Origin: Patescibacteria group bacterium
GTDB lineage: Bacteria; Patescibacteriota; Kazan-3B-28; UBA10110
Assembly (NCBI GenBank): GCA_041659905.1
Contig: JBAZXK010000002.1
Location: 201,832-265,831, forward strand
Length of the DNA stretch: 64,000 nucleotides
Direction of reading: 5' to 3'
A program made the position numbers and the translations under genes. Of the stretch, positions 3,001 through 61,900 are shown in pieces (the first letter of the stretch is position 1; each line of letters opens with the position of its first letter). The notes below the pieces were generated by a model. It was given only the letters and a program-made list of their open reading frames with translations, was not told the origin of the DNA and made no database searches.

Positions 3001-5902
3001 GCTGATCTTTACCTATCATGGTGTGCCAAGTTTAAAGAGCACTGTTACAGCCACGAGTCCGGTTAAAGCCGATGGAGTCGCCGAATCCACTGTCACCGTT
3101 ACCCTGATTGATACTTATGACAATCCGGTCCCATCGTTGAACACAAAAGTTGAGTCTAACCGGAATTTAGACACTGATCAAGAGGGCCACCTTATTATTC
3201 ATGACAACATTGTTCCGCCCACCAAAAATGCCAACGATCAGGGAATAGCTATTTATAAGGTGAGCTCTCCCCTGATTGGCCGGGCGGATCTGCAGGGTTA
3301 TTATGCCCCGCCGGTTGCCGTGCCGGACGATCTTTCAGAATTACCGAATTGGATCGGTTATAAGACGGCGAATGTTTTATTTACCAATCAAGGTCAGATT
3401 ATCTCTTTGTTCCCGGAATCGGCTAAACAAGGGCAAATAATCAAAGATCCGACACCGATGGTAGCTGTGGGTGATCTTGTCCAGTGGGATGCATCAAAGA
3501 CGACAGTTATGTTCCTTCCTTCAGAAGGAATCAGTTTCCAGTATCAACAAGGTAACAGCGGCTGGGACGACATAGAAAAACTGATGCTATATGCAGACAA
3601 ATCGGTAACTAATTTTAGGGCGATGGTAGACCCCAGTTTAGCCAATGCTCAATTGTATCTTAAGATTACAGAGGGAGGTGGTTCTTTCTACACTGCTGGC
3701 TATCCTGACAATATTACTGTGAATGTGACGTCAAGCTATGCCGAATTTCCTTACATTACAAGTGAAACGCCCGGTATTCTAAAAATAGAAGTTAGACTAA
3801 ATAATGCTAGCGGCAATAAGTTAGGTGAACTCTGGCTGCCTATGGCAAAATCGGAGAACTCCCTTGTCAGTATTGCCATCGATGCCTCTAAGCATTCTGT
3901 GGCCGTCAATGAAGCTATCGAAGTCACAGCTCAACTAAAGAATATCCACGGTACTGCCTATCTTGGACAAACATTTACATTTACTAAAGACGATGGCACC
4001 AGCGGATATTTCACTCCCGCTAATGGCCAGGTTACTGATACAGATGATGACGGCAAGGTAGTGATCCAATATACGCGGACTGGCACTGGCGGTGGTACCG
4101 TGCACATTTTTGCCACTGCTACTTATGAGACAGAGCTAGCCTCTGATCGGGTTGCTATTAGAAAGTTGGTGGATGCCTCGGCTAATCAAACTATTACCTA
4201 CGACTCCACTGGTCTAGATGTGCAAACAGAGGATGCCTCAAGACTGTCACTTACTTTTGGGGGCACCACTGGTGTGACTGTGGGTTCAGCTGCTCCGGTA
4301 GGAATCTGGACTTTCTTGGTTTCAACTGATCTTGGTTTGACTACACCTGCAGAAGAAACTACCACGTTCTTGGTAGAACCGGCGGGTCCTACTGCTCCGA
4401 CAATTCTAACACTCGACCCCGCCGAGGGTCTGCGCGGTCATGGTTACGATATCGAGATTGATGCTGTTAATACAGGCTTTGAATGGAATATCCCCGGCTC
4501 TAATTCGGTCGTGACCTTTACGCCAGTGAACGGGGGCGATCCGGTGACTACGCCGATTGTAGCTAGTTCCACTAACAGTTTTACACATCTGACTGTCCGT
4601 TGGGATATTGCGGCTAATGCTAAAGTGGGCAATTGGAACGTGAAGGTGACCACAGGGAACCAAGTGGCTGAGATGCCCTTTAACCATGACTTTAAAGTGA
4701 CTACCGAAAGCGGTTATTTCTTAGATGTAGTAGCTGTTCCCTCTAGTATCGCTCGTGATGGATCGGCCACATCTACTATCACTGCCACCGCCGGGTTTGT
4801 TGAGTTAACCGGAGATATAACACCATTAGACGGCGATCCTATTACTTTTGACAAAGGCACAGCGGGTGGCTCTTTGACTCCGGACGGCACCACTACTAAA
4901 GCCGATGGATCGCAAACCTGCGTTTATCAAACCGATGGTCCCGAAGATGCTACTGCGGAGACTAATATCCAAGTATCAGTGGTAGATACTGCCCAAACTT
5001 TACTGGGGACTGTCAAAATTATCAGAACTGGCATGAATCCTAATGACATTGATGTAACTAAATCTTGGATCTCGGCCACATCCCCGGTGCCAGCCTCGGG
5101 CGATCCCTTGGATGCTTCACTGGTAACAGTCACGGTGCGCAATGGTTTGAGTCAGCCATTAAGCGGTATAGTGGTAACCTTGAGTACTAATCATTCGGAG
5201 GATACAATCCTTACCACTCATCTTAATCCCCAGCCGACCGACACTGATGGTCGGGCTATCTTCGAAGTAATGTCGATGATGCCGGTGCATACCAGCACTA
5301 TCACCGCTACTTTTGGCAATGGCCTCCAAAAGCAAGTGAATGTATTATTTGAAGATCCCACTCTCCTCTCTCGGCGCTTCTTCGCGTTGACTGTGCCTTT
5401 CCAGGCGAGAGATTATGATAATCAAGTTTGGACGGTGATAAAACACAATGGAGCCGAGAAGAACATGGATGATGAGTACAAGAAAAATACTCGCACTGCC
5501 ACCAATCCAGATTTATTAACCGACTTAGAGGGAATTAGATTCTATTTGTATAACGGAACTAATGATAGTTACACCGTTTGGGTAAAGGGCAAAAATCATC
5601 TGGCGGCAGCTAAGACCACCGTTAAGACAAGCGACGCTGTTAGCGGTGTAATCAGTATTAATTTCAGTACCATCATAACCCACGGTCTGAAAGTGGGCGA
5701 TATTGCCATCGCTTCCGGAGGCACGCAAATTAAGCCGGGCTATCATGATAATACTATTGGCTCTGTCGACAGCAAGGCCGTTTACGATCGTTTCTACGGT
5801 AGCTATCTAGACTTGCCTGACTTAGATTTTAACCAAAGTGTTAACTTATTGGATTTCACTTATACCTTAGCCAACTGGGGGGCAGGTGCCCCGTTGCCAT
5901 AA
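98..5902 (+). CDS. Giant (~1935 aa) secreted/surface protein: N-terminal signal-anchor helix, Kelch/galactose-oxidase-like beta-propeller repeats, then multiple bacterial Ig-like (Big) domains
   Basis: Long ORF from the track. N-terminal hydrophobic stretch LFLVSVAVLVTVVFF. Repeated YLYLIGG / YLYVISG / GRLHIIGG / NTLYVVGG blades. Repeated T/V-rich Ig-like segments such as TATSPVKADGVAESTVTVTLIDTYDNPV. ATG at 98 follows a TTG at 95. Confidence 0.6.
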   Translation: MSIGERLTNLWQYRRVTPRQVTLFLVSVAVLVTVVFFNQDIVNLFRWLRGSAAGEPNPFGNLAWADVPASNFGRSNAKLIDVTDPAGNRYLYLIGGIETKTVDGNKRLSLIKSVERIPLNQTTGAIDAGSVWEKNDTNGTWGQMYAGHAEFGVVQSTDKRYLYVISGDIHIPNPLDFVNYSPLLFSTIEQLDLTNINLGWQPIALLTGVNFYPEVIQFNGRLHIIGGVYGNPFSAGYSWSTGGQDPYEIKDPLLLTDNDTNPVDLWKWDDKYEDLPVIGDLPVALPDSGIGADIDTGSGGPEVDPGGLSIGIGGMGGTGMVMADDGVHIQQVGGHAQNLSDTLTRGLISGEFVTTVSEHYIINPVTLAIDFKGELGKKSGVPITTSGNDYTGELSEIWELGKVMHIAHLRMWLDDVSTSPLGGFSVFTLYPAPQGRYGHKVFINNNTLYVVGGASWAAPIEKIYRPPVGNMFFINIYSFWVIDDDTHPFSKGDNFDRTILGFLRDDYYKYLGNITYQWDNVAEVWKGTNTVSNTSPLPSDYAFQSGSPLQGSGRAFFAWAELHPTETTTEFLAIGGLENNLTPDSDADNNWGLPLGVRATAASWPSVNYGLSVWETYRVEKFAGSSWETRAPLPNIGNDIIGVYGATAVGGGTGAIVFGGQTELIVDPEQPFFNDHVPAYERTVNTSGFGYLDSGGDGDTGTGTWWPMQNIQYARAYPATLDVRTATIGGGETIYIYKANGSTVGDGDGLPNNTSQVEALGPIQYGGAGVVDWSKSFIEVEPAPGNPAGYYNWPGTSETTLEILADRHDYALVTVNLMDYYGNPATSAGLDQVPGGLAVSLYTEYASGLSRSPKPAIKKNIKGDPTSTPDWIRIKGQPTSSTGGLLSPEWDNQFVLVDMGGANGGEDGNPDTTAGQVQFYISSSHDTFDTDGITPSPIEALAYILDTNETAFSVLADGALNTLPHKNELIFTYHGVPSLKSTVTATSPVKADGVAESTVTVTLIDTYDNPVPSLNTKVESNRNLDTDQEGHLIIHDNIVPPTKNANDQGIAIYKVSSPLIGRADLQGYYAPPVAVPDDLSELPNWIGYKTANVLFTNQGQIISLFPESAKQGQIIKDPTPMVAVGDLVQWDASKTTVMFLPSEGISFQYQQGNSGWDDIEKLMLYADKSVTNFRAMVDPSLANAQLYLKITEGGGSFYTAGYPDNITVNVTSSYAEFPYITSETPGILKIEVRLNNASGNKLGELWLPMAKSENSLVSIAIDASKHSVAVNEAIEVTAQLKNIHGTAYLGQTFTFTKDDGTSGYFTPANGQVTDTDDDGKVVIQYTRTGTGGGTVHIFATATYETELASDRVAIRKLVDASANQTITYDSTGLDVQTEDASRLSLTFGGTTGVTVGSAAPVGIWTFLVSTDLGLTTPAEETTTFLVEPAGPTAPTILTLDPAEGLRGHGYDIEIDAVNTGFEWNIPGSNSVVTFTPVNGGDPVTTPIVASSTNSFTHLTVRWDIAANAKVGNWNVKVTTGNQVAEMPFNHDFKVTTESGYFLDVVAVPSSIARDGSATSTITATAGFVELTGDITPLDGDPITFDKGTAGGSLTPDGTTTKADGSQTCVYQTDGPEDATAETNIQVSVVDTAQTLLGTVKIIRTGMNPNDIDVTKSWISATSPVPASGDPLDASLVTVTVRNGLSQPLSGIVVTLSTNHSEDTILTTHLNPQPTDTDGRAIFEVMSMMPVHTSTITATFGNGLQKQVNVLFEDPTLLSRRFFALTVPFQARDYDNQVWTVIKHNGAEKNMDDEYKKNTRTATNPDLLTDLEGIRFYLYNGTNDSYTVWVKGKNHLAAAKTTVKTSDAVSGVISINFSTIITHGLKVGDIAIASGGTQIKPGYHDNTIGSVDSKAVYDRFYGSYLDLPDLDFNQSVNLLDFTYTLANWGAGAPLP

Positions 5903-13893: not shown

Positions 13894-14420
13894 CCTCACA
13901 TGGGGTGCTAACCCCACATTAAAACACAGCTCTAGTGGCGGAGTTTTGGGTTGACATGCCATGCTAACCCCCATTTCAAAAATTTTTCTACACCTAAGAG
14001 GCTAAAGATATTTAGACAGTTGTCTAAATATAGGGTTGATAGGGCATGTGAGGTACCTAGCACCCCATGTTAACCCTAACGGCCTTTGGGTTGGTAGGCC
14101 ATGTTAACCCAAAGAGCTAAAATTGCTTAACTACTATTTATATATAATATATAGAGCTATAGCGCAAAATAGGCGATTGGTATGTCAGTAAATATTGACC
14201 GGGGTTAACAACCCATGTTAACCTCAAAGTGGTAGGGTTAACATGCCATGTGAGGTACCTAGCACCCCATGTTAACCCCAAAGGGCATTTTTTGGATCAT
14301 TCATAGGAGAAGAGTGTTGGGGTTGGTAACCCATGTTAACAAGTTAGCACCCCATGTTAACCTCAAGGCAAAAATGAGCCATAGTAAATAACTTTTAACC
14401 TAACATGCCATGCTAACCCT
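13894..14420. repeat. Array of >=8 copies of CCATGTTAACC / GGTTAACATGG (variant CATGCTAACCC), plus twice-repeated catgtgaggtacctagcaccccatgttaacc
   Basis: Read directly at ~13894, 13955, 14063, 14098, 14201, 14235, 14246, 14321, 14344 and 14401. Both orientations occur. Confidence 0.6.
14008..14031. promoter_or_regulatory. 24-bp perfect palindrome ATATTTAGACA-gt-TGTCTAAATAT (candidate operator)
   Basis: 11-bp arms are exact reverse complements with a 2-bp spacer. Confidence 0.5.
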
Positions 14421-16075: not shown

Positions 16076-17515
16076 ATGGCGAAGCAGTTAAAATTATTCG
16101 GGAAACCAACTAAGAAGACGAAATCTAGCGTTAAAACTAAAGGTCGCCCCGATGTCCCGAACCCAAGGGTTTCGGGAAGCGGGGCCAATGTCGCAAAGCG
16201 ACATTGGCATTGGACGGATTATTTTGTGTCCAGTCCACTTAAAGTTACTCCTAAGAAACAGCGGAAAGTTTCCGTGGTTTTTGTGATGATGAGCGGGGGA
16301 GTCGATTCTTCGGCCACGGCCTATCTCCTAAAAGAGCAAGGATTTGAGGTGGTGGGAGTGTATATGAAAAATTGGTCTTTCCCGATCAAGCGGATTCAGG
16401 AGTGTCCGCTGTACCAGGATTATAAAGATATGGTCAAGGTGTGCAAATTCCTCAAGATTCCTTATCAGGTCTGGAGTTTTGAAAAGGATTACCGCAAACG
16501 GGTAATTGATCCGTTTTTTGTGGGTTATCAGGAGGGATTAACTCCTAATCCGGATGTGATGTGCAACACCGAGATTAAATTTGATGATTTCCTGAAAAAA
16601 GCGTTAAAGATGGGGGCGGATTATATCGCCACTGGCCACCATATCAGGAGTCGTTGTGCCGATCCCAAGTCTTTTAAACTCCTTTCTTCTGTCATCCCGA
16701 CAACTTCTTCTGTCATCCCGACAACTTCTTCTGTCATCCCGACCGGAGTGGAGGGATCTAAATCTGGCGTGAGAGATTCCTCGATTTCACTCGGAATGAC
16801 AAAAAGTAAAGCTCGGAATGACGGCAACAACAAAATCTGTAAGGATTACCAGCTTTTAAAGGGCAAAGACCCCATTAAAGATCAAACCTATTTTGTTTAC
16901 CGGCTTACCCAGGAACAGCTCAAGAAATGTATCTTCCCGGTAGGGGATTATGTCAAAACTGATCTTCGGGCCATGGCGAAAAAGGTAAATTTGCCGACTG
17001 CCGAGCGGCGCGATAGCCAAGGCATCTGTTTTATTGGGAATATTAATGTGAAATCCTTTCTGAAGACTAAACTACCCGAAAAAGAAGGGGATATCGTGAC
17101 TAAAGAGGGCAAAAAGATCGGTAAACATGAAGGGGCTTGGTTTTATACGATTGGACAAAGGAGGATTGAAGGCCTGTCTGGCATGGTGAAGCCAATGTAT
17201 GTCATCGGCAAAAACATGAAGAAAAACCAGGTGATTGTAGGTGATGACAAAGATACCTACAATAAAATCGCTCGGCTATCCAACTTCCATTTAATTAATA
17301 ATAAAACCGTTAAACCGATCGATTTGATGGGGATTATCTTAACTGCTAAATCCCGCTATACGCCGGAAACCAGTCGAGGCAAACTGGGTAAAGACAAAAA
17401 GGGTTACTTTTTTGAATTTGTGAAGCCGGAACGAGCCATCACCCCCGGCCAATCCCTGGTTCTCTATAAAGGCGAAATTTGCCTGGGCGGCGGTATTATT
17501 ACTAGTGCTAGATAG
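16076..17515 (+). CDS. mnmA: tRNA 2-thiouridylase MnmA, with a Lys-rich N-terminal extension and a ~55-aa internal insertion
   Basis: VVFVMMSGGVDSS (PP-loop), TPNPDVMCN, ADYIATGHH, KDQTYFVY, DSQGICFIG. Start uncertain: alternative GTG near 16268 gives a canonical N-terminus. Confidence 0.8.
   Translation: MAKQLKLFGKPTKKTKSSVKTKGRPDVPNPRVSGSGANVAKRHWHWTDYFVSSPLKVTPKKQRKVSVVFVMMSGGVDSSATAYLLKEQGFEVVGVYMKNWSFPIKRIQECPLYQDYKDMVKVCKFLKIPYQVWSFEKDYRKRVIDPFFVGYQEGLTPNPDVMCNTEIKFDDFLKKALKMGADYIATGHHIRSRCADPKSFKLLSSVIPTTSSVIPTTSSVIPTGVEGSKSGVRDSSISLGMTKSKARNDGNNKICKDYQLLKGKDPIKDQTYFVYRLTQEQLKKCIFPVGDYVKTDLRAMAKKVNLPTAERRDSQGICFIGNINVKSFLKTKLPEKEGDIVTKEGKKIGKHEGAWFYTIGQRRIEGLSGMVKPMYVIGKNMKKNQVIVGDDKDTYNKIARLSNFHLINNKTVKPIDLMGIILTAKSRYTPETSRGKLGKDKKGYFFEFVKPERAITPGQSLVLYKGEICLGGGIITSAR
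16686..16800. repeat. 21-bp tandem x3 (cttctgtcatcccgacaactt) followed by a 68-bp palindromic element, all in-frame within mnmA
   Basis: Encodes SSVIPTTSSVIPTTSSVIPTGVEGSKSGVRDSSISLGMT. Element: gtcatcccgaccggagtggagggatct...agattcctcgatttcactcggaatgac. Confidence 0.65.
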
Positions 17516-17548
17516 AAAAACCGCCTCCATGGAAGGAGGGGTTTTGTG
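17516..17548 (+). terminator. Terminator after mnmA
   Basis: ccgcctccatggaaggaggggttttgt. Confidence 0.5.
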
Positions 17549-17601
17549 GCGATAAACGCCAATAACTTATGCGTGCACTCTGATAGTGGTGTTACCCTGT
17601 A

Positions 17602-18764: not shown

Positions 18765-18822
18765 GTCATTCCGACCGCAGTGGAGGAATCTCATGAGATC
18801 CTTCGACTCCGCTCAGGATGAC
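18765..18822. repeat. Palindromic element, copy 2
   Basis: gtcattccgaccgcagtggaggaatctcatgagatccttcgactccgctcaggatgac. Confidence 0.65.
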
Positions 18823-18914
18823 GGCGCAAGGAATACGCCGTCAGTTAATAATTTATCAGATATTAAAGAGCTTATTAAGTTAATAAGCAGTTATTTTTAT
18901 TAATAATTCTTTCT

Positions 18915-18972
18915 GTCATTCCGACCGTAGTGGAGGAATCTCATGAGATCCTTCGACTCCGCTCAGGATGAC
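18915..18972. repeat. Palindromic element, copy 3 (near-identical to copy 2)
   Basis: gtcattccgaccgtagtggaggaatctcatgagatccttcgactccgctcaggatgac. Ends 15 nt before the next CDS. Confidence 0.65.
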
Positions 18973-20096: not shown

Positions 20097-20165
20097 GTCA
20101 TCCCGACCGTAGCGGAGGGATCTGAGGTTTTTACTGTTAGATTCCTCGACTTCGCTCGGAATGAC
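20097..20165. repeat. Palindromic element, copy 4
   Basis: gtcatcccgaccgtagcggagggatctgag...agattcctcgacttcgctcggaatgac. Confidence 0.65.
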
Positions 20166-20353: not shown

Positions 20354-23300
20354 ATGAATAATGCTTTCAAAAAGATGACGCGGGCAATTGCTTGGTTGGC
20401 AACAGCCAGCTTAACCGTGGGTTTCGCTATGATGCCCAGTGGTGCAGTTGCTCAAACGGTCTATAAGTATGAATGGGTCCGCCAGAGTGGCACCATTAGC
20501 GCAGATCAGTTAGCTCATGAATACCAAGGGGTAACCGCGGGCCAAACTATTCCTCTGTCGTTAACGATGATTAACCGGTCTGGCACAACCATCAAAGGCA
20601 AATCGGCTTTGCCGGTTGGCACCAAGCAAGTTCCGGTCGGTGTCTGGGGCATTGGTACTCAGAACCCACAGGACGGCACGCCTTCCTTCTTAGATTTGTC
20701 CAGCTTTGTGCTGAACAATAACCGGTTTGTTTACTATGACGGAGCCGATGTTCCTAACGGAGGTGAAATTACCTTCACTTGGAATATTAAAATGGCTGCG
20801 AGTCTCTCTAACGGGACTTACAAATTATATGTAAGACCAGTCAGTGAGTTCTTGGCCTGGACTCGTCAGGTCAAGAATGGTATCACTTTACCGGGTACCA
20901 ATTCTGATATCTTCTGGCAGTTTGTAGTGGGCAGTGGTGTTTCTACTGCTCCTACTGGCGGTTTGTCGATCGTTTTAGCGGGCGACACCCCAGCTGCTTC
21001 TAGCATTGCCGATGCCGGGCAAGCTAACTTCACTAAATTCACCATGACCCCTGCATCCGGAGCCACTGTTTTGGTTAATCAGCTCTTTGTGATGCGTGAC
21101 GGTCTTTCTACTGATACTCAATTAGAAAATGTTAAGCTGTTAAATGCTGACGGAGTACAAATTGGGAGTACAGCTGGTGGATTTAATGCTGATCATCGGG
21201 CTCAAATCTTTATCAATCCAGCGTTGAGTTTAACTGGTTCGCAGTCCTTCTATCTAAGGGCCGGAGTGGTTAACGCTACTGATGCTGGAGTTACCTTTAG
21301 ATTAGGTCTTGCCACTAACGATGCGGTGGTGTCTAATGCCACATCAGTTACTGGTGCACCAGTCTGGGGTAACTTTATGACGTGCGTACAGGTAGCCATT
21401 GGTACTATTACTGTCACGGAAGATGGTTCTATCTCTGACAGCACCCCAGATGTGGGTGATAAGGATGTCATTTTGAATACTTTCAAATTGACAGCCGGTT
21501 CTGTCGAAGGATTTGTAGTTGACAGAATTACTGTCCTCAAGGCTGGTACTGCCGAAACGGCCGATGCTACCAATATTGAGTTGTGGGATGTGACCAATAA
21601 TAAAAGCTTGGGAGAACAAGCCGCTTGGACATCAGATGGTAAAGCTTCTTGGGCGGTCAATCTTGCCTTAGGCAAGGGCGATACCATTCGCTTACGGGTA
21701 CAAGCAGACATCGTTGACGGTGTCGGCTTAACCATAAACTGCGACATCGCTGATGGCAGTGATTACTTGGTCTTCGCTAGGGGCACAACCTATGGATTCT
21801 ACGTTACTCCTAGTGCTTCCTGGACAGCCGATGCTGGCACAGGTGGAACTAACAATGCTGGTCAAGGTGACAAGAACCAAACCATTAACTCAGGTTCCGT
21901 CACCGTTTCCAAGAGTGCTCTCACTCCCGCCACTGGTAATATTGCCATAGCTGATAGTCAGCTCCTGGCGGTATTTGCCTTTGACGTTAAGGGTGAGCAG
22001 GTCAGAATTAGCGCGGTGCACGTTGATGCAGCCGTGACTGATGTCAGCGCTGGCACTCCAGCGGCTGATGCTACCGATCTCACTAATGTTCGTTTAGTTG
22101 ATATGGCGACCGGAAATATTCTGTCTGGACCAGTTGATGGTACAGCAGACAGTACTGATCCGGATGAGGAATTAGACTTTACTAATACCTTTACTTTGCC
22201 AGTCGGCGTTAGTAATGTTGGCGTAAAAGGTCGTTGGGTGCTGCTTCTGGAACTGATGGTTTTGAAGCTACTGACACCCTTTCCTTCTCGATTGATGCTG
22301 CTGGTCAGGTATCCGTTAAGGGTATTATTACCAACAACACAATTACTCCTACCATCTCTGCTGCTTCTAGCAACACCTTGACTGTCAAGGCAGGGTCAAT
22401 GACTATTGAAACCTTAGGCCAGCCGGCTACAGGAAGTATAGTGGTCAATACTCAAGATATGGTAGTAGGTACTTATGCATTCAACGCGGTAGCGTCAGGT
22501 GAAGACCTGATCGTATCTGCCTTCACCGTAACTGACGATATGGATGCAACTACTGGAGAAAGCGACGACTTTGTCAACTGGCAATTGTGGGCCGATTTAA
22601 CTTCTGGCACCACTTCTCCTCGCGGAGATGTCTATGAAACGCCAATCTCTGGTACGGAAAATCCGACCAGTGATGCTGCTGACAGTACTGATACCCAAGC
22701 ATTCACCTTCACTACTCCTATAACCGTGCTTAAGGGCACGAGTGTAAGAGTTGTGTTAGTGGCTGATGTGGCTTCTGGTGCAACCGCTAATGGTACTCAT
22801 ATCTTTGAGACTGCTAGCGCCACTTTTGCTACCGTAACCGGGAAAGATACCGGAACGGATGTCGCTGAAGGTAGTGCTGGTTTGTCAATCAACGCTACTT
22901 TGACGATTGCCGCCAATGGTAGTTTGACCAGCGCATTAGCTGCCAGCACTCCTGTTACTGGTCTCATGGTGGCGAGCGCAATCACTACTTTAGGGGCTTT
23001 TGATCTGATTGCTTCTAATGAAGCCTACACAGTGACCAAGCTTTCCTTGGATTTCACAGCTGGTTATGACTCATTGGATACAGTAAAAATCACTTATCCA
23101 ACCAAGACAGGAACAGATACTCGCGAAATCTCACTTTCCACTGCCGCCGCTACCTTCGACAACATCAACATGTATGTGCCGAAGAACGGTCGCGCTACCT
23201 TCACTGCTACTGGTGTTGGTAAAAAGGTGGGTACTAGTGGTACAGGCGGAACCTTCGACGACACAATTACTTGTATCTTCGACAACTCTGCTGCCGGCGA

Positions 23301-24126
23301 ATTTGCGGCAGTGGGAGAAGGCTCTGGTGCTGCCTTAACTGGTTCGGATATTTCCGATCAGACGGCTGCTAGTATGTTCCTCTATAACTCAGTTCCGACC
23401 ATAGTTTCGAGCAATCCTTCTTCAGTCGGAACCATTGTGCCGGGCGGTACTATTAACTTGTATAAGTTTAAAGTTACTGCCGACGCGGCTGGTGCTGTGG
23501 CATTGAAGTCGTTCCACTACTCAGTCTTCATTACAGATGCGAGCACGACGACGGCTTCCGCTGCGGATTTGACTAACTTTACCATTCTTCGGGATGGTAC
23601 GGATATCACTTCCAGCGCTCAAATCACTGAGGTGTCCAGCAACGGTTCTAGCTTTATTGCTACTCCGTTGACTTTGGAAGCGACCAACTACATTGAAAAC
23701 AACGTTTCGGCTTGGGTTCAAGTAGCGTTTGGTCAAGATCCTGACGGTACTGACACTGAGCAGGTTATATCTGCGAACCAAACTGTGGAATACACCTTAC
23801 GGGCACAATGCGGCACTGGCTTTACCACTACCGATGCGATCTCAACTAACTTGTTGCAAGATACAACCGATGCCACCGCTCTGGCTTACTACCTGAGCGA
23901 TGCTGATACTGGCACTGGTGTTGAACAAGTAGTTGCCTTGCAAAAGGCTGATGGTACCCAGTTCACTACTGCGACTGGTGTTCACTTGATTTGGTCAGAT
24001 CGTTCCACTGTCATTCATGTAGCGAGCTTTGATGACGATGGTACTACCGAAACCTCCAGTGCTGACTGGACCAACGGTTACCTAGTCAAGAGCTATCCGT
24101 TATCGGCTTATGGTTATACGCTTTAA
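20354..24126 (+). CDS. Large (~1260 aa) S/T/G-rich secreted surface protein, interrupted by an apparent frameshift near 22225-22245 (track splits it into 20354-22381 and 22234-24126)
   Basis: Signal peptide MNNAFKKMTRAIAWLATASLTVGFAMMPSGAVAQT. The frame-1 tail RWVLLLELMVLKLL... is out-of-frame read-through. Frame 2 continues the same sequence style. The C-terminal ~250 aa are paralogous to 44302-45747. Confidence 0.55.
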
Positions 24127-29859: not shown

Positions 29860-30813
29860 ATGAAAGTATTTATTACCGGTATTACAGGAACTTTAGGCAA
29901 AGAACTGCTGAGCCGGTTTTATGATCAGTGGGACATTACCGGCTATTCTCGCGACGAATTAAAACAAGCCCAATTGCAACGCCAGTATCCCAATGTGACT
30001 TATCGCATCGGAGATATCAGAGATTACGATGCGTTGCATCGGGCTATGAAAGGAGCGGATGTAGTGATTCATGCGGCGGCAATGAAGCGGATCGAAGTCT
30101 GTGAAGAAAATCCAATCGAAGCCATTAAGACTAATGTGTTAGGCACGGAAAATGTGGCCCGGGCGGCTTTTTATCATGGCATTACCAAGGCGGTGACGAT
30201 CGGCAGCGACAAAGGCGTTGATCCGGTGAATGCTTACGGAATGACGAAAGCCCTGCAGGAAAAAATCTTTATTTCCTACGGCTATAATTGCGTGCGCTAC
30301 GGTAATGTCTTCGGTAGCCGCGGCAGCGTCGTGCCGCTGTTTTATCAGCAGGCGCAAACAGGGGAACAACTCACCGTCACGGATCCAAATATGACAAGGT
30401 TTATCTTAACTATCGACGAAGCCATCAATTTAATTATGTTAGCGCTCAATAGCCCGATGCGGGGCGATGTGTTTATCAAAAGATCGCCGGCGGCTCGGCT
30501 GATTGATATTGCCCACGCTTTTTCCGATAACGTAAAAGTGATTGGCAAAATGCGAGGCGAAAAATTGCATGAAGCCTTGGTCTCGTCCGAGGAATTTACT
30601 CGGCTGACCGAAGCTGAAAACGGTTTTGTAGTTATTGGCAAGGAATTAGTCAGAACGGAATACGGCACTGCCTATACTTCCGACCGAGAACGATTATTGT
30701 CTGTGCCAGAAATTCAACAATTATCTGCCAAAGTTTTAGGCGTATCCCAATATACCGAAACTTTTACCATGGCAGCGCCTCAGCCTGTTTCGGCTGTGTC
30801 TAAGAAAGAATAA
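29860..30813 (+). CDS. CapD/PseB/FnlA-like UDP-GlcNAc 4,6-dehydratase (short-chain dehydrogenase fold)
   Basis: VFITGITGTLGKEL Rossmann motif and NAYGMTKALQEKIF active-site block. Confidence 0.65.
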   Translation: MKVFITGITGTLGKELLSRFYDQWDITGYSRDELKQAQLQRQYPNVTYRIGDIRDYDALHRAMKGADVVIHAAAMKRIEVCEENPIEAIKTNVLGTENVARAAFYHGITKAVTIGSDKGVDPVNAYGMTKALQEKIFISYGYNCVRYGNVFGSRGSVVPLFYQQAQTGEQLTVTDPNMTRFILTIDEAINLIMLALNSPMRGDVFIKRSPAARLIDIAHAFSDNVKVIGKMRGEKLHEALVSSEEFTRLTEAENGFVVIGKELVRTEYGTAYTSDRERLLSVPEIQQLSAKVLGVSQYTETFTMAAPQPVSAVSKKE

Positions 30814-31730
30814 TGGTTGTTAATAAACCTAAAGTGGCTATTTTGGGAGTTACCGGTATGGTCGGCAGCTCGATTTATCAAACCCTGCAAGATAAATACG
30901 ATTTGGTATTGGTATGCCGGAATAAAGAAAAATTAAATTTGTTGGATCAGCGCTATGGGGGAGTCGGTCAGCATTCGATTTACCAATTGGATGTAAATAA
31001 TATTTATCGGGAATATCTCAGAGATACGGCGAAGGGAGCGCTCTTAAGCCCTACTTTGACTAAATTAGTTAATGAATTATCGACTTGTGATTGGGTAATT
31101 AATGCCCTCGCTATTATTACGCCTTATTGTGAAATTGATCCCGGTTTAACTTTTTTTATCAACAGCGCTTTTCCGCACCTGTTAGCCGAAACACTGGGCC
31201 CTAAGCTTATTCACATGACTACCGACTGTGTGTTTAGTGGCTCCACAGGCGCACCTTATGATGAGGTGGCTCCCAAGCTCCCTCCCGACATTTATGGGCT
31301 ATCTAAGGCTCTTGGGGAGCCCCAGAAGGCCCTTGTCATGAGGACTTCGTTCATCGGGCTCGAGTTAACTGGCAATCGCAGCCTGCTGGCTTGGTTGATT
31401 AGCCAAAGAGGCAGAACCATTAATGGCTATACTAATCACTGGTGGAACGGTATTACTGCGCTAGAGTTCGGCCATATTTGCCAAAAAATTATCGATCGCG
31501 AAATTATGCCAGAGCCTGGCATCTACCATGTTTTTTCTGAAGATATTACCAAGCACGATTTATTAGTGAAGTTAAATCAGAAATTTAATTTAGGTTGTAC
31601 GATTAACCCGGTGGCGGCACCTTTGGCGATCGACCGCCGGTTGCGCACAATCAAAAATCTGAATCAACAACTCCAGATTCCATCATTGGATGCTATGATC
31701 GCCGAACTTGCGTCATCCCAAAACATATAA
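30813..31730 (+). CDS. RmlD-fold sugar-nucleotide reductase/epimerase (CapF/FnlB-like candidate)
   Basis: VAILGVTGMVGSSI Rossmann motif. Start overlaps the upstream stop. Confidence 0.5.
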   Translation: MVVNKPKVAILGVTGMVGSSIYQTLQDKYDLVLVCRNKEKLNLLDQRYGGVGQHSIYQLDVNNIYREYLRDTAKGALLSPTLTKLVNELSTCDWVINALAIITPYCEIDPGLTFFINSAFPHLLAETLGPKLIHMTTDCVFSGSTGAPYDEVAPKLPPDIYGLSKALGEPQKALVMRTSFIGLELTGNRSLLAWLISQRGRTINGYTNHWWNGITALEFGHICQKIIDREIMPEPGIYHVFSEDITKHDLLVKLNQKFNLGCTINPVAAPLAIDRRLRTIKNLNQQLQIPSLDAMIAELASSQNI

Positions 31731-31732
31731 CT

Positions 31733-31802
31733 GTCATCCTGAACTTCCCACTTCCGTCATCCTGAACTTCCCACTTCCGTCATCCTGAACTAGTTTCAGG
31801 AT
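31733..31802. repeat. 23-bp tandem (gtcatcctgaacttcccacttcc) x~2.6 ending in the palindrome atcctgaactagtttcaggat
   Basis: Read directly. Overlaps the 3' end of the GIY-YIG gene. Confidence 0.6.
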
Positions 31803-32080
31803 CTCCCGAAGAGGTCTTCCCACTTTGGGTTGTTACTCTCAATTAGATTAATCTTCCACTCCCGATGCCAACGCTTTAATTGCTTCTCTCTTTGAATAGC
31901 TTCAGCAATAGTTGGGTATTCTTCCGAGTAAACTAATTTATTGAGATTGTATTTTCTCGTGAAAGAATCTGCCTGGCTGATCAAGTGTTGTTCTGATCTT
32001 TTCATCAGTTGGCTAGTAACACCGATATACAAGATACCCTTTGGCTTATTGGTGAGGATATAAACATAACCTTTCTTCAT
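31796..32080 (-). CDS. Small GIY-YIG nuclease family protein (YhbQ-like)
   Basis: KGYVYILTNKPKGILYIGVTSQLMKRSEQH matches the GIY-YIG motif. Confidence 0.75.
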   Translation of the reverse strand: MKKGYVYILTNKPKGILYIGVTSQLMKRSEQHLISQADSFTRKYNLNKLVYSEEYPTIAEAIQREKQLKRWHREWKINLIESNNPKWEDLFGRS

Positions 32081-32095
32081 AACCCCATTATAGAG

Positions 32096-32236
32096 ATCCT
32101 GAAATAAATTCAGGATGACGAAAAGGAGATATCCTGAAATGTAGAGAAATAAATCCTGGACCCTCCTACACTGAAACTACGGACGGGCAGGCAAGTCAGG
32201 ATGACGAAGTTAGGGATACTTCGTCAGTTTAGGATG
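32096..32236. repeat. Palindromes of the same family upstream of the GIY-YIG gene
   Basis: atcctgaaataaattcaggatgac, and gtcaggatgacgaagttagggatacttcgtcagtttaggatg. Confidence 0.55.
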
Positions 32237-56334: not shown

Positions 56335-56411
56335 TGGTCGGGGTGCCGAGATTCGAACTCGGGACCTCACGCCCCCTAGACGTGCGCCATAAACCACTAG
56401 GCTACACCCCG
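56335..56411 (-). tRNA. tRNA-Pro, anticodon loop CUAGGGG (anticodon AGG if the stem is canonical; A34 is unusual)
   Basis: Reverse complement cggggtgtagcctagtggtttatggcgcacgtctagggggcgtgaggtcccgagttcgaatctcggcaccccgacca. Acceptor stem identical to tRNA-Pro(CGG). Confidence 0.75.
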
Positions 56412-58503: not shown

Positions 58504-58595
58504 GCTCGTTAGTTGTCATGCTGAATTTATTTCAGCATCTCCAGGGAGAGATCCTGAATCCGAACTTGGCCTTATGGACAGTCGGTCCAGGATGA
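58504..58595. repeat. Palindromes of the GTCATCC/GGATGAC family
   Basis: gtcatgctgaatttatttcagcat, and atcctgaatccgaacttggccttatggacagtcggtccaggatgac. Confidence 0.45.
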
Positions 58596-58726
58596 CGAAT
58601 AGGGAACAGAATGCCGGGCTCAAAGGATGTATGTCAAAGGACTGAATTTCTGACTAAATATTATATCAAAAATGGGCAGAAGTCAAGAGTTTTTGGCTCT
58701 GGGAGAGGATAATTTATATACAATAA

Positions 58727-58775
58727 CCCCTCCTTTCCTCCCCTTATATTAAGGGGAGGTTGGGTGGGATGGTTT
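58727..58775. repeat. Partial third copy (5' hairpin + G-rich block) of the structured element
   Basis: cccctcctttcctccccttatattaaggggaggttgggtgggatgg. Confidence 0.4.
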
Positions 58776-58945
58776 TATGTTGACAAGGAGAGTGATTTGT
58801 AGTATAATAATATAATTACTTTATAGAGTTCCTTGCGGAAACAAACATCAAAATGGCTCCAAAAAGCAAAAAGAATAACCTCTTGTCGGTAACCCCTCGA
58901 CTACACTCGGGGAATAAAAAATTATACGATCCTGGACAAGCCAGG

Positions 58946-61900
58946 ATGACGGGCAGAGTAAGTAGGGTGCTGTCGTGGGTGGTGATGGCAGTGTTGATTA
59001 TTCAGGTGGTGTTTCCGGGAGGATTGTTTGATTTTGCTGTCCAAAGAACTTATGCTGCTACAACCTTAGGCATATCGGCGCCCATTGCTTCTACAGAGTG
59101 GGTTATTGGGGAAAATAATACCATATTATGGACAACTGTCGGGGATGTTCCAAGTTATTTCAAATTGTATTATTCAACCGACAGTGGAGGCAATTGGGCT
59201 TCAATAGATGATTATGAGGCCTATACAGGTAGTCCTCAGTTCTATCTTTGGACAACGCCGGTAGTGGCTAACGCAGGATCACAAACACATCAGGTTAAGG
59301 TTGAGGCGTACGATGCCGGGGATGTTTTATTGGCGACTAAAAGTACTGTCTCTTACATAATTGATTATGGGCCACTAGATAGTTTTGTTGTAGATGTTGA
59401 ACCTCAAATAAGCGAGGGATTGTCGGTTTATTTAGATGCTACAGCCAAAGACCAATATGATAATACTATTTTGAATTTCTCTGATTCAGGTATGGTTACT
59501 CAGGGCTACGTGAGGATTGATGGTATGGGAGTGCCTAATGTCATGGTTACTGTAAACGGTGATTCAAACTTAACAAACGGAGATGGCCTTTTTAGTATTG
59601 TTCAGCCTCAACCTTCTGGATGGTCTTGGGCTAATGGACATGCTCAAATTGTTACTTATTTCACTTATGATGAAGGTAATATTGGAGATGGAGGTGGAAC
59701 AATTAGTTATGATTTAAACGCCAAAGGGAATGATACCACTAATGTAGTAGCTAATCTAGTTCTTATGGATGCGCCGACATCGGCTTCCAGTTTTGTAATC
59801 GGCTCGCCTGGGAACAGCATCACTTTTCGGGCAGGAGGAGAAACAAGTATTGACCATTTGGATTTGGCGTATTCGCCAAACAATGGAGGTAATTATTACA
59901 CGATTGAAAATGGAGTGGCGGATGGAGCGATGCCACAGACTTACAGTTGGATTGTTAACAACGATACTCCGGGCGCGCAATGGAAAGTCCGCGTGCAATC
60001 CTACGATGCTACGGATACCCTGATTGCGACCGGGACCTCGGATGCCTTTACGGTGGCCTACGGTGCTGTGGCCAGTTTTACTGTAGCTGCTCCAGAAACA
60101 GCTAACATCAACCAATATTTTAGTTTGACGGTAACTGCTAAAGATACATATGGAAATACCATTACTACATTTAGTGAAGCCACAGCGATCGGGTCTTTGC
60201 CCAGCAATATCACGCCAACCACTATCGGCAACGGTACCACTACTGGCACTTGGTCGAATGGAGTAGTCACATATAACGGTTATCAAATCAGCGGGACAGG
60301 AGTACAAACCATTACCGCGACTTATGGCAGTGCGACCGGATCTGATACTATGAACATCATCGGTGGGGGATCTACTACCGTGATTGGTTGTACGGAATCA
60401 ATGGATAAAAAAGCCCCGGCTTCGGCGGTAGTAGGGATTTTAGATGCCAATAACATTATCCAACCCATGCCGGCCACTACTTACAAAACTCCCATGACAG
60501 TAGTGGCGGAAGCAATCGATCCCGACCAAGGTTTGGTGGCTGATGGTTGTCCTTTAGGTACGGGTGTAGCTGCAATTGATTTGCAACTTAAAAAAGGCGC
60601 CGGTGAGTATATTGCCCAAAGCGGGGGAATGTATATGGTCCCACCTGCCAATGCCAAACCCGGTTATGATTATTACAAATGGATTATAGATATTCCGGCA
60701 AAGGAATTTACGACTTATTATTTCTATTCGTTAGCCACTGATTATGATGGCAACGCCGAAACCGCCCCGAGCATGCCAGGTTATGATACGTTGACGCTAG
60801 TGGATATGCGCCGGCCATATGTGATTAGTACCAATCCGCTTAATAGCCAAACCGGCGTGGCGAATAATATGCCCATCCAAGTGGTATTTAATATGCCCAT
60901 GAATACTGCTTCGGTCTGGAGTGCCTTTAGTATTACTAAGCAAGGCGCTGTAGTGCCGGTGGATTTGCGTTGGTCAGCTGTGTGGTCTAATAACAACCAA
61001 GTAGCAAGTTTCCGTCATGCCACCGTATTCGATTACAGTGGAGTTTACACAGTAAAAATCGATCCGGATATTGCTACCAATGCGAGCGGAGCGCCTTTGG
61101 ATATTACCAACCCTGATGCAGCTCCCATGCCATTCTCGTTTACGGTAGCGGCGGGTCCACAAACCAACCGACCTTATTTAGCCACTTCAACTAAAGTAGT
61201 TAATTTAGCGATTGCACCGGTCGGAAGTTTACTTACTTACACTATCGTTTTGCGTAATACCGGCACGGCCACGGCCAATGTAGTGTTTACTGATCCTATT
61301 CCTGTCAATACAACTTACGATAATATGGTGACCAATGCAGTTTATGACGCGGTGGCTAAGACTATCCGTTGGAGCGGTACTATCGCCCGGGGTCGAACTT
61401 GGACCATTACCTTCCGGGTCAAGATTAATACGGGAGTGGCTAATGGTACTGTTATCGAGAATAAAGCTACCTTCAGTGATGGAGCTGGCAATACCTTTGA
61501 CCGGTATGCCAACACCACCGTTAACACCGTGCCAACTTCCAAGGTCATTGGCAATTTAGTGGACGGAACTCTAATCACCCCGATGCAGGGCTATACTTAC
61601 GCCTCGCCGTTAACGGTGGTGGCGCAAGCTCCCAATGCCTCTTCCTTGCTCACGGTAAATTTGTATTACCGAACCAGCGCCACGGGCGATACTGTGTATA
61701 AGAATTTCGGGCCAGGTACAAAATATCAAGATTTGCCGGATGGCTCCGCTTATTACAAATGGGATTTCCCATTTGCTGAGGGAATCAGTTTGACCTATTA
61801 TTTTTACACCCGAGCTACCGATAGTTATGGCAATATCGAAAATGCTCCCAGCAGCTATGATGCCTATACTCGGGTGAATACGATTCGTCCGTATATTACT

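Follow-up and report, generated by a model that had tools for sequence, protein, structure and literature searches.

The mnmA gene of a Patescibacteria group bacterium (GenBank assembly GCA_041659905.1), located in the 64,000-nucleotide stretch of contig JBAZXK010000002.1 analysed here (positions 201,832 to 265,831, hereafter the window), contains a cluster of short palindromic repeats within its coding sequence (16684-16822). It is quite probable that this cluster belongs to the NTS/SRM-like class of repeats that accompany Ssn-type nucleases, and that it occupies, in frame, the tolerant tip of a β-hairpin that was colonised anciently and whose content has been turning over. Translated in frame, the cluster would give a loop of about 58 amino acids (aa) that is rich in Ser, Lys, Thr and Gly. 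Comparisons with relatives suggest that the loop was colonised in the ancestor of the clade, with later turnover by insertion, decay and stutter of repeats, while other repeat families have evidently colonised the same loop independently in more distant lineages of the candidate phyla radiation (CPR). Selection would leave only the in-frame, stop-free versions, and the insert seems to be passively tolerated because the hairpin tip is unconstrained. An odd-looking essential gene would be explained by a nuclease-associated repeat cluster read in frame, with no mystery domain; the recently described Ssn/SRM system would extend to Patescibacteria and into coding sequence, and one MnmA β-hairpin would be a recurrent landing site for repeats.

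Structure of the expanded loop and its insert

The mnmA open reading frame (ORF; 16076..17515, plus strand) encodes a tRNA 2-thiouridine(34) synthase of 479 aa, with the PP-loop S73GGVDS78 and the catalytic residues D160/C163 and C318. The expanded loop (aa 193-258, 16652..16849, plus strand) forms the tip of a β-hairpin that belongs to the PP-loop domain, between strands 190-194 (IRSRC) and 258-262 (YQLLK) of the AlphaFold2 (AF2) model. HMMER alignment to the solved structures 9hlv, 2hma and 2der is split into two blocks, query residues 66-192 and 259-478 against 9-134 and 143-365, with about eight residues of the Bacillus subtilis and Streptococcus pneumoniae enzymes facing query residues 193-258 (~66). 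The distance within the pattern GH[HY]..DQ[ST]YF is 79 aa in the window protein and has a mode of 20-21 aa in homologues, which gives ~58 extra residues between GHHIRSR and YQLLKGKD, close to the ~55 that an initial annotation, made from the DNA letters, had counted after GHHIRSR. Its suggestion of an in-frame insertion in a surface loop agrees with the hairpin-tip position obtained from the structure alignments and the AF2 model, in which the insert is disordered (predicted local distance difference test, pLDDT, <50 at residues 208-247).

C193 (16652-16654) and C256 (16841-16843) flank the loop in this clade and could form a clasp at the base of the hairpin. The cysteine pair is also found in the short-loop homologues P0034-P0036 (C-DKNG-C) and in P0043 (here and below, P numbers denote homologous proteins, mostly from CPR, and L numbers denote loci read as DNA).

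The left part of the insert is a 21-bp tandem array (16684..16746, plus strand) of two truncated units and a third that continues into a full motif, encoding (SSVIPTT)x2 followed by SSVIPTG. A unit begins with TCT, continues with the opening 11 nt of the motif (GTCATCCCGAC) and closes with a 7-nt spacer. The perfect 21-bp triplication first described is borne out in its period and identity, since Tandem Repeats Finder (TRF) returns 16684-16743 with period 21 and 100% matches (score 120), and needs correction in its number, which is 2.9 copies, because the third unit departs in its final 3 nt (CGG vs AAC).

The array leads into a palindrome with arms at 16729-16759 and 16774-16804 (31 nt each, 14 nt apart), the left arm overlapping the third tandem unit. 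This is the 68-bp palindromic element of the initial annotation, which is indeed read in frame and dispersed in the window, and which turns out to be imperfect, with arms 74% complementary. It consists of two complete SRM-like motifs in inverted orientation, one in the left arm (16733..16758, plus strand, GTCATCCCGACCGGAGTGGAGGGATC) and one in the right arm (16775..16800, minus strand, GTCATTCCGAGTGAAATCGAGGAATC), both recovered by the motif regular expression and both aligning with the intergenic copies described below. Folded as RNA, the palindrome reaches -32.9 kcal/mol (z = -4.6), and 0 of 200 shuffled sequences are equally stable.

Half-motifs lie outward of both arms: the left arm has two, spaced by 21 bp, and the right arm has one, at 22 bp. 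The right one is a truncated half-motif at 16812..16822 (minus strand, GTCATTCCGAG), 22 nt outward of the right arm, which encodes ARND. Further to the left, GTCTTTTAAAC at 16669..16679 (plus strand), which encodes KSFK, is probably a decayed half-motif, an assignment that is tentative and follows from the orthologous place in relatives, where L078 has GTCATTTAAAC, L002 and L003 have ATCATTTAAAC, and P0004 still reads SFRH. That the 21-bp units are truncated 5' ends of the element had escaped the initial annotation, as had the membership of the element in the SRM/NTS class and the presence of an ssn-like gene in the same window.

A dispersed repeat family with a candidate nuclease partner

The motif was defined as GTCATYCY-N8-18-RGRATC, which is looser than the published SRM pattern and for which specificity was checked separately. 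It has 11 matches in the window vs 0.11 expected, and 30 matches in 77 kb of close CPR loci vs none in 405 kb of non-CPR mnmA loci. The 11-nt half-motif GTCATCCCGAC, allowing up to two mismatches, is found 32 times in the window vs 10.3 +/- 3.0 expected, a number reached by 0 of 100 shuffles. Four palindrome copies, that in mnmA and three intergenic ones, align with 45 invariant columns. The intergenic copies are inverted pairs at 18765..18822 and 18915..18972, assigned to the family by alignment and the motif expression, and at 20097..20165, which is the closest relative of the mnmA copy. Between the first two pairs is an AT-rich block (18823-18914, CGTCAGTTAATAATTTATCAGATATT...GCTTATT..AATAAGCAGTTATTTTTATT) with a hairpin and a T-run; its counterparts in L003 (7790-7880) and L002 (7150-7220) are kept despite wholly different flanking repeats.

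The Ssn family comprises single-domain GIY-YIG proteins of ~94 aa (CDD cd10448) that are site-specific nucleases of single-stranded DNA (ssDNA), and oriented hairpin repeats, known as NTS in Neisseria and SRM generally, lie on both sides of ssn genes (PMC11893778). The hairpin is bound by Ssn and the cut falls a few nucleotides upstream, the family being defined by cleavage of ssDNA and not of dsDNA or RNA; in mutagenesis, cutting depended on the GTC before the stem and binding on the C after it (PMC11893778). All 11 window motifs of the form GTCATYCY...RGRATC have GTC before the stem, an ATYCC/GGRAT stem and C after it, features that they have in common with the Neisseria NTS (CGTCATTCCCGCGMAVGCGGGAATCYRG).

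The window also encodes a predicted Ssn-family ssDNA nuclease, a single-domain GIY-YIG ORF of 94 aa (31796..32080, minus strand; PF01541, 63 bits, residues 3-78). The gene is enclosed by inverted full motifs, 31779-31803 on the plus strand and 32095..32119 on the minus strand, the latter found with the motif expression. The flanking motifs fold as ssDNA, with -6.1 kcal/mol (z = -4.0) for 31712..31803 and -6.2 kcal/mol (z = -4.8) for 32095..32119. For comparison, an SsnA sequence was taken by tblastn from a Neisseria gonorrhoeae chromosome in PLSDB; the records NZ_CP119140.1 and NZ_CP119142.1 in this database are 2.17-Mb N. gonorrhoeae chromosomes mislabelled as plasmids. The gonococcal ORF has 94 aa and lies among 16 canonical NTS within 1.6 kb, and its length and NTS context suggest that it is the SsnA orthologue. 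The window protein is 51% identical to it (E = 4e-30, well inside the E < 1e-10 that Chenal et al. (2025) use as the operational definition of Ssn homology), and the equivalents of Y6, Y17 and E64, which are Y7, Y18 and E65, are conserved. A similar arrangement occurs in L003, where an ssn-like homologue of 98 aa, 49% identical to the gonococcal ORF, is found just downstream of mnmA, between arms of the mnmA-copy subfamily and after four stuttered half-motifs. The ORF at 31796-32080 is thus probably an Ssn-family nuclease of the cd10448 type and the likely protein partner of the repeats.

Four relatives contain matches to the degenerate search sequence published for SRM, HGTCWYN(0-2)YYVSBRHN(0-5)WNVSBRGN(0-2)RNCYNB (PMC11893778), at L002 1801-1828, L006 5648-5675, L080 801-828 and L131 1067-1094, and the last of these canonical NTS lies within the MnmA loop. 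These 28-mers, all on Patescibacteria contigs, are nearly identical to the Neisseria NTS consensus (e.g. CGTCATTCCCGCGAAGGCGGGAATCCAG).

Stuttered half-motifs

The tandem array in mnmA is one case of a more general pattern, in which units of half-motif and spacer are repeated ahead of a full motif, the half-motif being the truncated 5' end of the motif. Eight such stutter arrays were found. The terminal full motif is intact in five of them and is broken up by a nested palindrome in a sixth (L003 4463-4514), and the arrays of L007 and L076 are more complex. Beside the ssn-like gene of the window, three half-motifs precede a full motif (31712..31803, plus strand) with spacings of 21, 23 and 23 bp; the array beside the ssn gene of L003 (5362-5432) has spacings of 21, 20 and 20, and those in the mnmA loops of L002 and L003 have a period of 21. 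Outside reading frames the period is 20, 22 or 23 bp, and within mnmA it is 21 bp, as would be explained if only in-frame, stop-free versions survive. In every case the stutter lies upstream of the motif, where the characterised Ssn enzymes cut, so the arrays may be scars of cleavage and repair. Ssn cleavage and repair would, we infer, both seed the stutter and drive the spread of the repeats, and the position of the stutter on the cut side together with its difference in copy number (see below) provides a testable clue to how the repeats originate and spread.

Two details of these arrays may be recorded. In the window, the first, decayed unit beside the ssn-like gene (31712-31732) supplies the C-terminal residues ELASSQNI of a 305-aa ORF (30813-31730), together with its stop codon. 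In L003, the nested palindrome at 4514-4545 is a 16-nt GC-rich mini-palindrome (CCTCGCCCAGGGCGGG) with a 5-bp direct repeat (CGGAG) on either side, which resembles the target-site duplication of another tiny element.

Distribution and turnover in relatives

The initial annotation had allowed for a recent insertion, and the relatives speak against it. L002, with 80% protein identity, carries the element in an identical frame and has two termini on each side. L003 also has it in this frame, with three termini on the left and a further small palindrome nested in a motif. Both have the half-site stutter, and the loop is occupied throughout the clade. The right outer half-motif (AAAGCTCGGAATGACGG, encoding KARNDG) is also found in L076, the loop of which otherwise holds other motif subfamilies, and the half-motif at 16812..16822 is therefore probably old. 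The finding that the initial annotation had named as one that would refute it, an ancestral lineage-specific loop lacking the palindromic signature, did not occur, since the relatives carry that signature.

Nor is the expansion unusual. The supposition that essential enzymes rarely tolerate such inserts is contradicted by 118 homologues, of which 64 have an expanded loop, 40 of them by at least 19 residues; the loop has at most 21 aa in 54 homologues, 22-39 aa in 24 and at least 40 aa in 40. An insert of at least 8 aa is present in this loop in 43 of 117 aligned homologues and in 3-10 at each of five other sites, which makes the hairpin loop the main insertion site of MnmA and a hotspot across CPR. 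The expanded loops carry at least eight different repeat families. Repeat pairs verified in the DNA, of differing subfamilies and in differing frames, are present in L002, L003, L006, L076, L077, L131, L132 and L133; unrelated palindromes, of the CCCCTCC...GGAGGGG type and others, occupy the loop in L004 and L078, and L134 is an empty site. All six close-relative loci that could be read by tblastn, independently of gene calls, are in frame and stop-free, for which the chance, considering frame alone, is ~0.0014.

Turnover can also be followed outside mnmA. Downstream of the sigma-factor gene, orthologous intergenic sites remain occupied, with repeats that differ between the window, L003 and L002, implying that in-place turnover is general and not peculiar to mnmA.

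In L007, a metagenome-assembled genome (MAG) of UBA10110, a run of Ns (~3580-3620) falls exactly in the MnmA loop, which suggests that repeat clusters break short-read scaffolds. Inserts of this kind would make proteins longer, disrupt alignments and leave gaps in the scaffolds of CPR genomes.

Copy-number difference in the tandem array

A second assembly, L001 (ENA ERZ27249449), matches window positions 6076-27514 (21.4 kb) with 0 mismatches and two indels. The first is exactly one 21-bp unit, with two units in L001 and three in the window, so that the MnmA deposited in ENA has 472 aa and the form found in JGI and in two NCBI MAG records has 479 aa. The second is a 1-bp deletion in the window at ~22233 (22215-22250), which splits a 1257-aa ORF into overlapping ORFs at 20354-22381 and 22234-24126 and is either a frameshift or an assembly error. 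The comparison supports the view that the tandem repeat is polymorphic between near-identical genomes, as known from their assemblies, and the repeat-mediated polymorphism that the initial annotation had proposed is thereby upheld. Slipped-strand expansion of an existing direct repeat would be the simplest cause of the difference.

An artefact of assembly, in place of a population polymorphism, might account for the difference in copy number, and for that alone. Each of the two sequences is a metagenome assembly, the samples may be related because the 21.4 kb are otherwise identical, and the sole other difference, the ORF-breaking 1-bp indel in the window, looks like an error in one of the assemblies. 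Such an artefact is nevertheless unlikely. With 63 bp, the array fits within both the k = 141 of the L001 assembly and the length of typical reads, which makes collapse unlikely; the three-unit form is present in two NCBI records and in JGI; and relatives carry two (L002) or three (L003) units with diverged spacers, so the number evolves.

Conservation of the DNA, the peptide and the enzyme

Between the window and L002, third codon positions are identical at 20 of 24 sites in the element and 12 of 13 in the stutter, vs 190 of 347 in the core (p ~0.003-0.005 each). Such high third-position identity in the element points to nucleotide constraint or recent conversion and not to selection on the peptide.

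A function of the repeats for the host at the level of DNA could produce such constraint, for example if Ssn cleavage sites limited or shaped the recombination of incoming ssDNA near mnmA. It would fit the greater conservation of the element DNA compared with the synonymous sites of mnmA and the continued occupation of orthologous intergenic sites despite changing repeat content. A limiting role has been proposed for NTS clusters in Neisseria, and SsnA of N. meningitidis cuts NTS-bearing ssDNA, with transformation ~5-fold lower (PMC11893778). For mnmA a function of this kind is nonetheless improbable: no feature marks the gene as needing protection, the Neisseria repeats are rarely intragenic (2%) and cluster around surface-protein genes (PMC11893778), the occupation of the loop by unrelated palindrome families fits permissiveness better, and competence and Ssn activity are only hypothetical in this organism.

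It is still less probable, indeed very unlikely, that the repeat-encoded loop has been recruited and maintained as a peptide, for instance as an arm for docking or for contact with tRNA. The maintenance of frame in many lineages, the bracketing cysteines (C193/C256 in this clade, and also present in the short-loop P0034-P0036) and the additional gain of a structured N-terminal extension by the same clade might be read in this way. The sequence, length (22-100 aa) and frame of the peptide, however, differ freely among relatives. The insert is disordered in the model and is lacking from 54 of 118 homologues, close ones (P0019-P0026) included. Moreover, third positions and protein are conserved to a similar degree in the element (83% vs 92%) and in the stutter (92% vs 85%), in contrast to the core (52-60% vs 87-94%). 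Third positions of the element that are as conserved as its protein imply a signal at the level of DNA and not of the peptide.

In the core of the enzyme, protein identity of 87-94% between window and L002 with just 52-60% at third codon positions indicates strong purifying selection. The catalytic blocks of MnmA, which the initial annotation had reported as complete, are so: PP-loop residues S73-S78, D160, C163 and C318 are invariant across a 117-sequence alignment and align by HMMER to TPNPDVMCN and DSTGICFIG of 9hlv and 2hma. The catalytic Asp/Cys and second Cys of Escherichia coli MnmA are D99, C102 and C199. In profile searches the ORF scores 395.5 bits with the equivalog model NCBIfam PRK00143 (cutoff 284) and 351 bits with TIGR00420 (cutoff 237), and it has all three Pfam MnmA domains, PF03054, PF20259 and PF20258. 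The AF2 model, built on the 117-sequence alignment, has a pLDDT of 86 and a predicted template modelling (pTM) score of 0.82, where an earlier 22-sequence alignment gave a pLDDT of 61; confidence is low only at residues 1-36 and 208-247. With Foldseek, it superposes on 2hma, 2det, 2deu and 2der with a target-normalised template modelling (TM) score of 0.90 and a root mean square deviation of 2.3-2.5 Å. The gene is therefore intact and the enzyme under strong purifying selection, with formation of 2-thiouridine at position 34 (s2U34) as its predicted activity. Although a repeat cluster within an enzyme gene can resemble early decay, it is hardly credible that mnmA is a decaying pseudogene still open by chance, given an intact ORF of 479 codons with all catalytic residues, a score well above the equivalog cutoff, a core under strong purifying selection and in-frame inserts in all relatives examined.

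Other features sought within the gene can be dealt with briefly. A search of the window with Rfam at gathering thresholds gave just seven tRNAs, and a structured RNA or self-splicing element as the insert was rejected on this result and on the reading frame being kept in every relative. An antisense ORF at 16621-16833 (70 aa) was not counted as a gene because it is open merely through the palindrome being open on both strands. A search for internal promoters returned two promoter-like matches vs 2.5 expected. A terminator-like hairpin with a T-run (17524..17549, plus strand) follows immediately 3' of the mnmA stop codon.

Weight of the assignment

Several results weigh against placing the mnmA cluster in the SRM class, or against details of its proposed history. 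As ssDNA, the mnmA palindrome reaches just -10.2 kcal/mol (z = -1.05) and its arms are weak (-4.2 and -1.6 kcal/mol), no better than shuffles; because the thermodynamics of the arms give no support, the SRM assignment rests on the sequence pattern and the association with ssn. The published SRM pattern has 0 matches in the window; the inner stems of the copies differ from those behind the pattern. The Ssn homologues of CPR are known from sequence alone, their cutting and mobility being putative, and the mode by which SRM spread is not established even in Neisseria (PMC11893778). A search of the copies and the orthologous intergenic regions, where divergence is too great, returned neither target-site duplications nor clean filled/empty pairs. 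Recent exchange or gene conversion, in place of constraint, could also account for the high third-position identity of the element. Finally, translation of the loop is deduced from the reading frame and not from protein-level observation, and the difference between two and three units is drawn from assemblies rather than reads. These points are included in our judgement that an anciently colonised, SRM-like cluster at a tolerant hairpin tip is quite probable.

Relation to known repeat systems

By their identity, the repeats are best placed in the Ssn/SRM system. Their partner in the window would be, from its sequence, a single-domain GIY-YIG protein of the same length, with 51% identity and the equivalents of Y6/Y17/E64 kept, and its gene is flanked on both sides by oriented GTCAT-stem-loop-stem-ATC repeats, which are multi-copy and often in inverted pairs; canonical NTS 28-mers are present in L002, L006 and L080 and in the MnmA loop of L131. 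Unlike known SRM, the window copies fall outside the published pattern, with a shorter stem of 5 bp and a loop of 11-13 nt. The mnmA copies lie in frame in a conserved enzyme gene, whereas 2% of NTS are intragenic in N. meningitidis (PMC11893778), and tandem arrays of truncated 5' halves, as seen in the window, are absent from the text of that study. Chenal et al. (2025, Nat Commun; PMC11893778) mention neither Patescibacteria nor tandem half-motif arrays.

In behaviour only, the insert is similar to the Rickettsia palindromic elements (RPEs; Ogata et al. 2000, 2002), which are described in PMC10969869 as dispersed palindromes in frame in housekeeping genes, translated and compatible with fold and function. 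In both cases, palindromic repeats form extra peptide in housekeeping genes of a reduced, host-dependent genome. As far as that account goes, RPEs are ~100-150 bp long and form defined families, each with a conserved peptide, whereas the mnmA-type units are 58-69-bp pairs of ~25-nt motifs, with frames that differ by lineage and with half-motif stutter. Rickettsia is among the SRM-rich genera (PMC11893778), which is a lead only for kinship with RPEs.

Repetitive extragenic palindromic (REP) sequences, the bacterial interspersed mosaic elements (BIMEs) that they form and the associated IS200/IS605-like transposases (RAYT) provide another parallel. They too are short hairpin repeats in inverted pairs or clusters, with a small repeat-flanked gene for an enzyme that recognises hairpins in ssDNA, and their sites persist while content changes. 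The enzyme here is, in contrast, a GIY-YIG nuclease and not an HUH transposase, and we know of no transposition chemistry for Ssn. REPs are also extragenic by definition.

MITEs (miniature transposable elements with inverted repeats; Correia, ERIC, BOX etc.) are likewise small, with terminal inverted repeats, non-coding and occasionally fused in frame to ORFs (PMC10969869). In the window repeats, by contrast, each arm would be an oriented copy of a nuclease-recognition motif. The hallmarks of MITEs were looked for, and no direct repeat flanks any copy; the only gene found between such arms is that of the nuclease, and no transposase was found there. Full-text literature searches found no publication on palindromic insertions in CPR coding sequences, or on GIY-YIG proteins or MITEs in Patescibacteria. 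The insertion is of a known kind, that of selfish repeats; what is new in detail is its place in coding sequence, the arrays of stuttered half-motifs and a hotspot that extends across the phylum.

A further-reaching proposal is that the SRM/Ssn pair is actively propagating in Patescibacteria, with new copies landing preferentially in or near existing ones, stutter as the scars of cutting, the MnmA tip and a few other loops as phylum-wide landing pads, and the coding palindromes of Rickettsia as part of the same system. Taken as a whole this is doubtful; if true, the landing pads would keep generating variation in loop length and sequence in conserved enzymes.

The N-terminal extension

The window MnmA begins with an extension of ~60 aa, as initially annotated, with a K/R-rich segment: in HMMER alignments residue 9-11 of solved MnmA chains aligns with query residue 66-67. 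The extension has two parts. The basic tail (aa 1-36, 16076..16183, plus strand) is K/R/S/P-rich, variable and modelled as disordered (pLDDT <50), and the segment of aa 37-66 (16184..16273, plus strand, KRHWHWTDYFVSSPLKVTPKK...) is conserved and lineage-specific, as judged from relatives and the AF2 model, in which residues 41-66 have a pLDDT of 86-97. The start MAKQLKL is kept in P0002, P0003, P0007 and P0009. Relatives down to ~55-60% identity keep both MAKQLKL and WHWTDYFxSSPLK, with S52, S53, L55 and K56 nearly invariant, while the basic stretch between MAKQLKL and WHWTDYF is variable and has taken up repeat-derived inserts in P0003 and P0007. Below ~55% identity the segment of aa 37-66 is missing and SGGxDS is offset by ~10-15 aa. 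Conservation of these motifs and the confident modelling of residues 41-66 make it likely that the ATG at 16076 is the true start of mnmA and that the extension is a feature of the lineage.

Other features of the window

A solitary minus-strand motif at 58928-58950 ends in ...CAGGATGAC, and its ATG opens a frame from 58946 that has no stop before the window ends (at least 1685 aa), with a signal- or transmembrane-like start. The repeat may supply the start codon of a giant protein. A further intergenic inverted pair of motifs (GTCATGCTGAA... type) occurs with a palindrome of a different family, CCCCTCC...GGAGGGG, at 58515-58596 and 58718-58778. Members of this second family occupy the MnmA loop in L078, L004, P0012, P0015, P0017 and P0022, where they encode peptides like PPLxxGRxGG. 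Another palindrome (GGGTTAACATG...CATGTTAACCC) is present in two copies, at 14031-14078 and 14235-14278, upstream of a MerR-like gene.

Two tRNA loci also deserve mention. At 47842-47928 there is a 42-nt inverted repeat, the arms of which are the 3' end of tRNA-Pro(CGG) and an inverted partial copy of it just downstream. At 56335-56411, ARAGORN predicts a tRNA-Pro with the anticodon AGG; tRNAs with A34 other than Arg-ACG are uncommon in bacteria.

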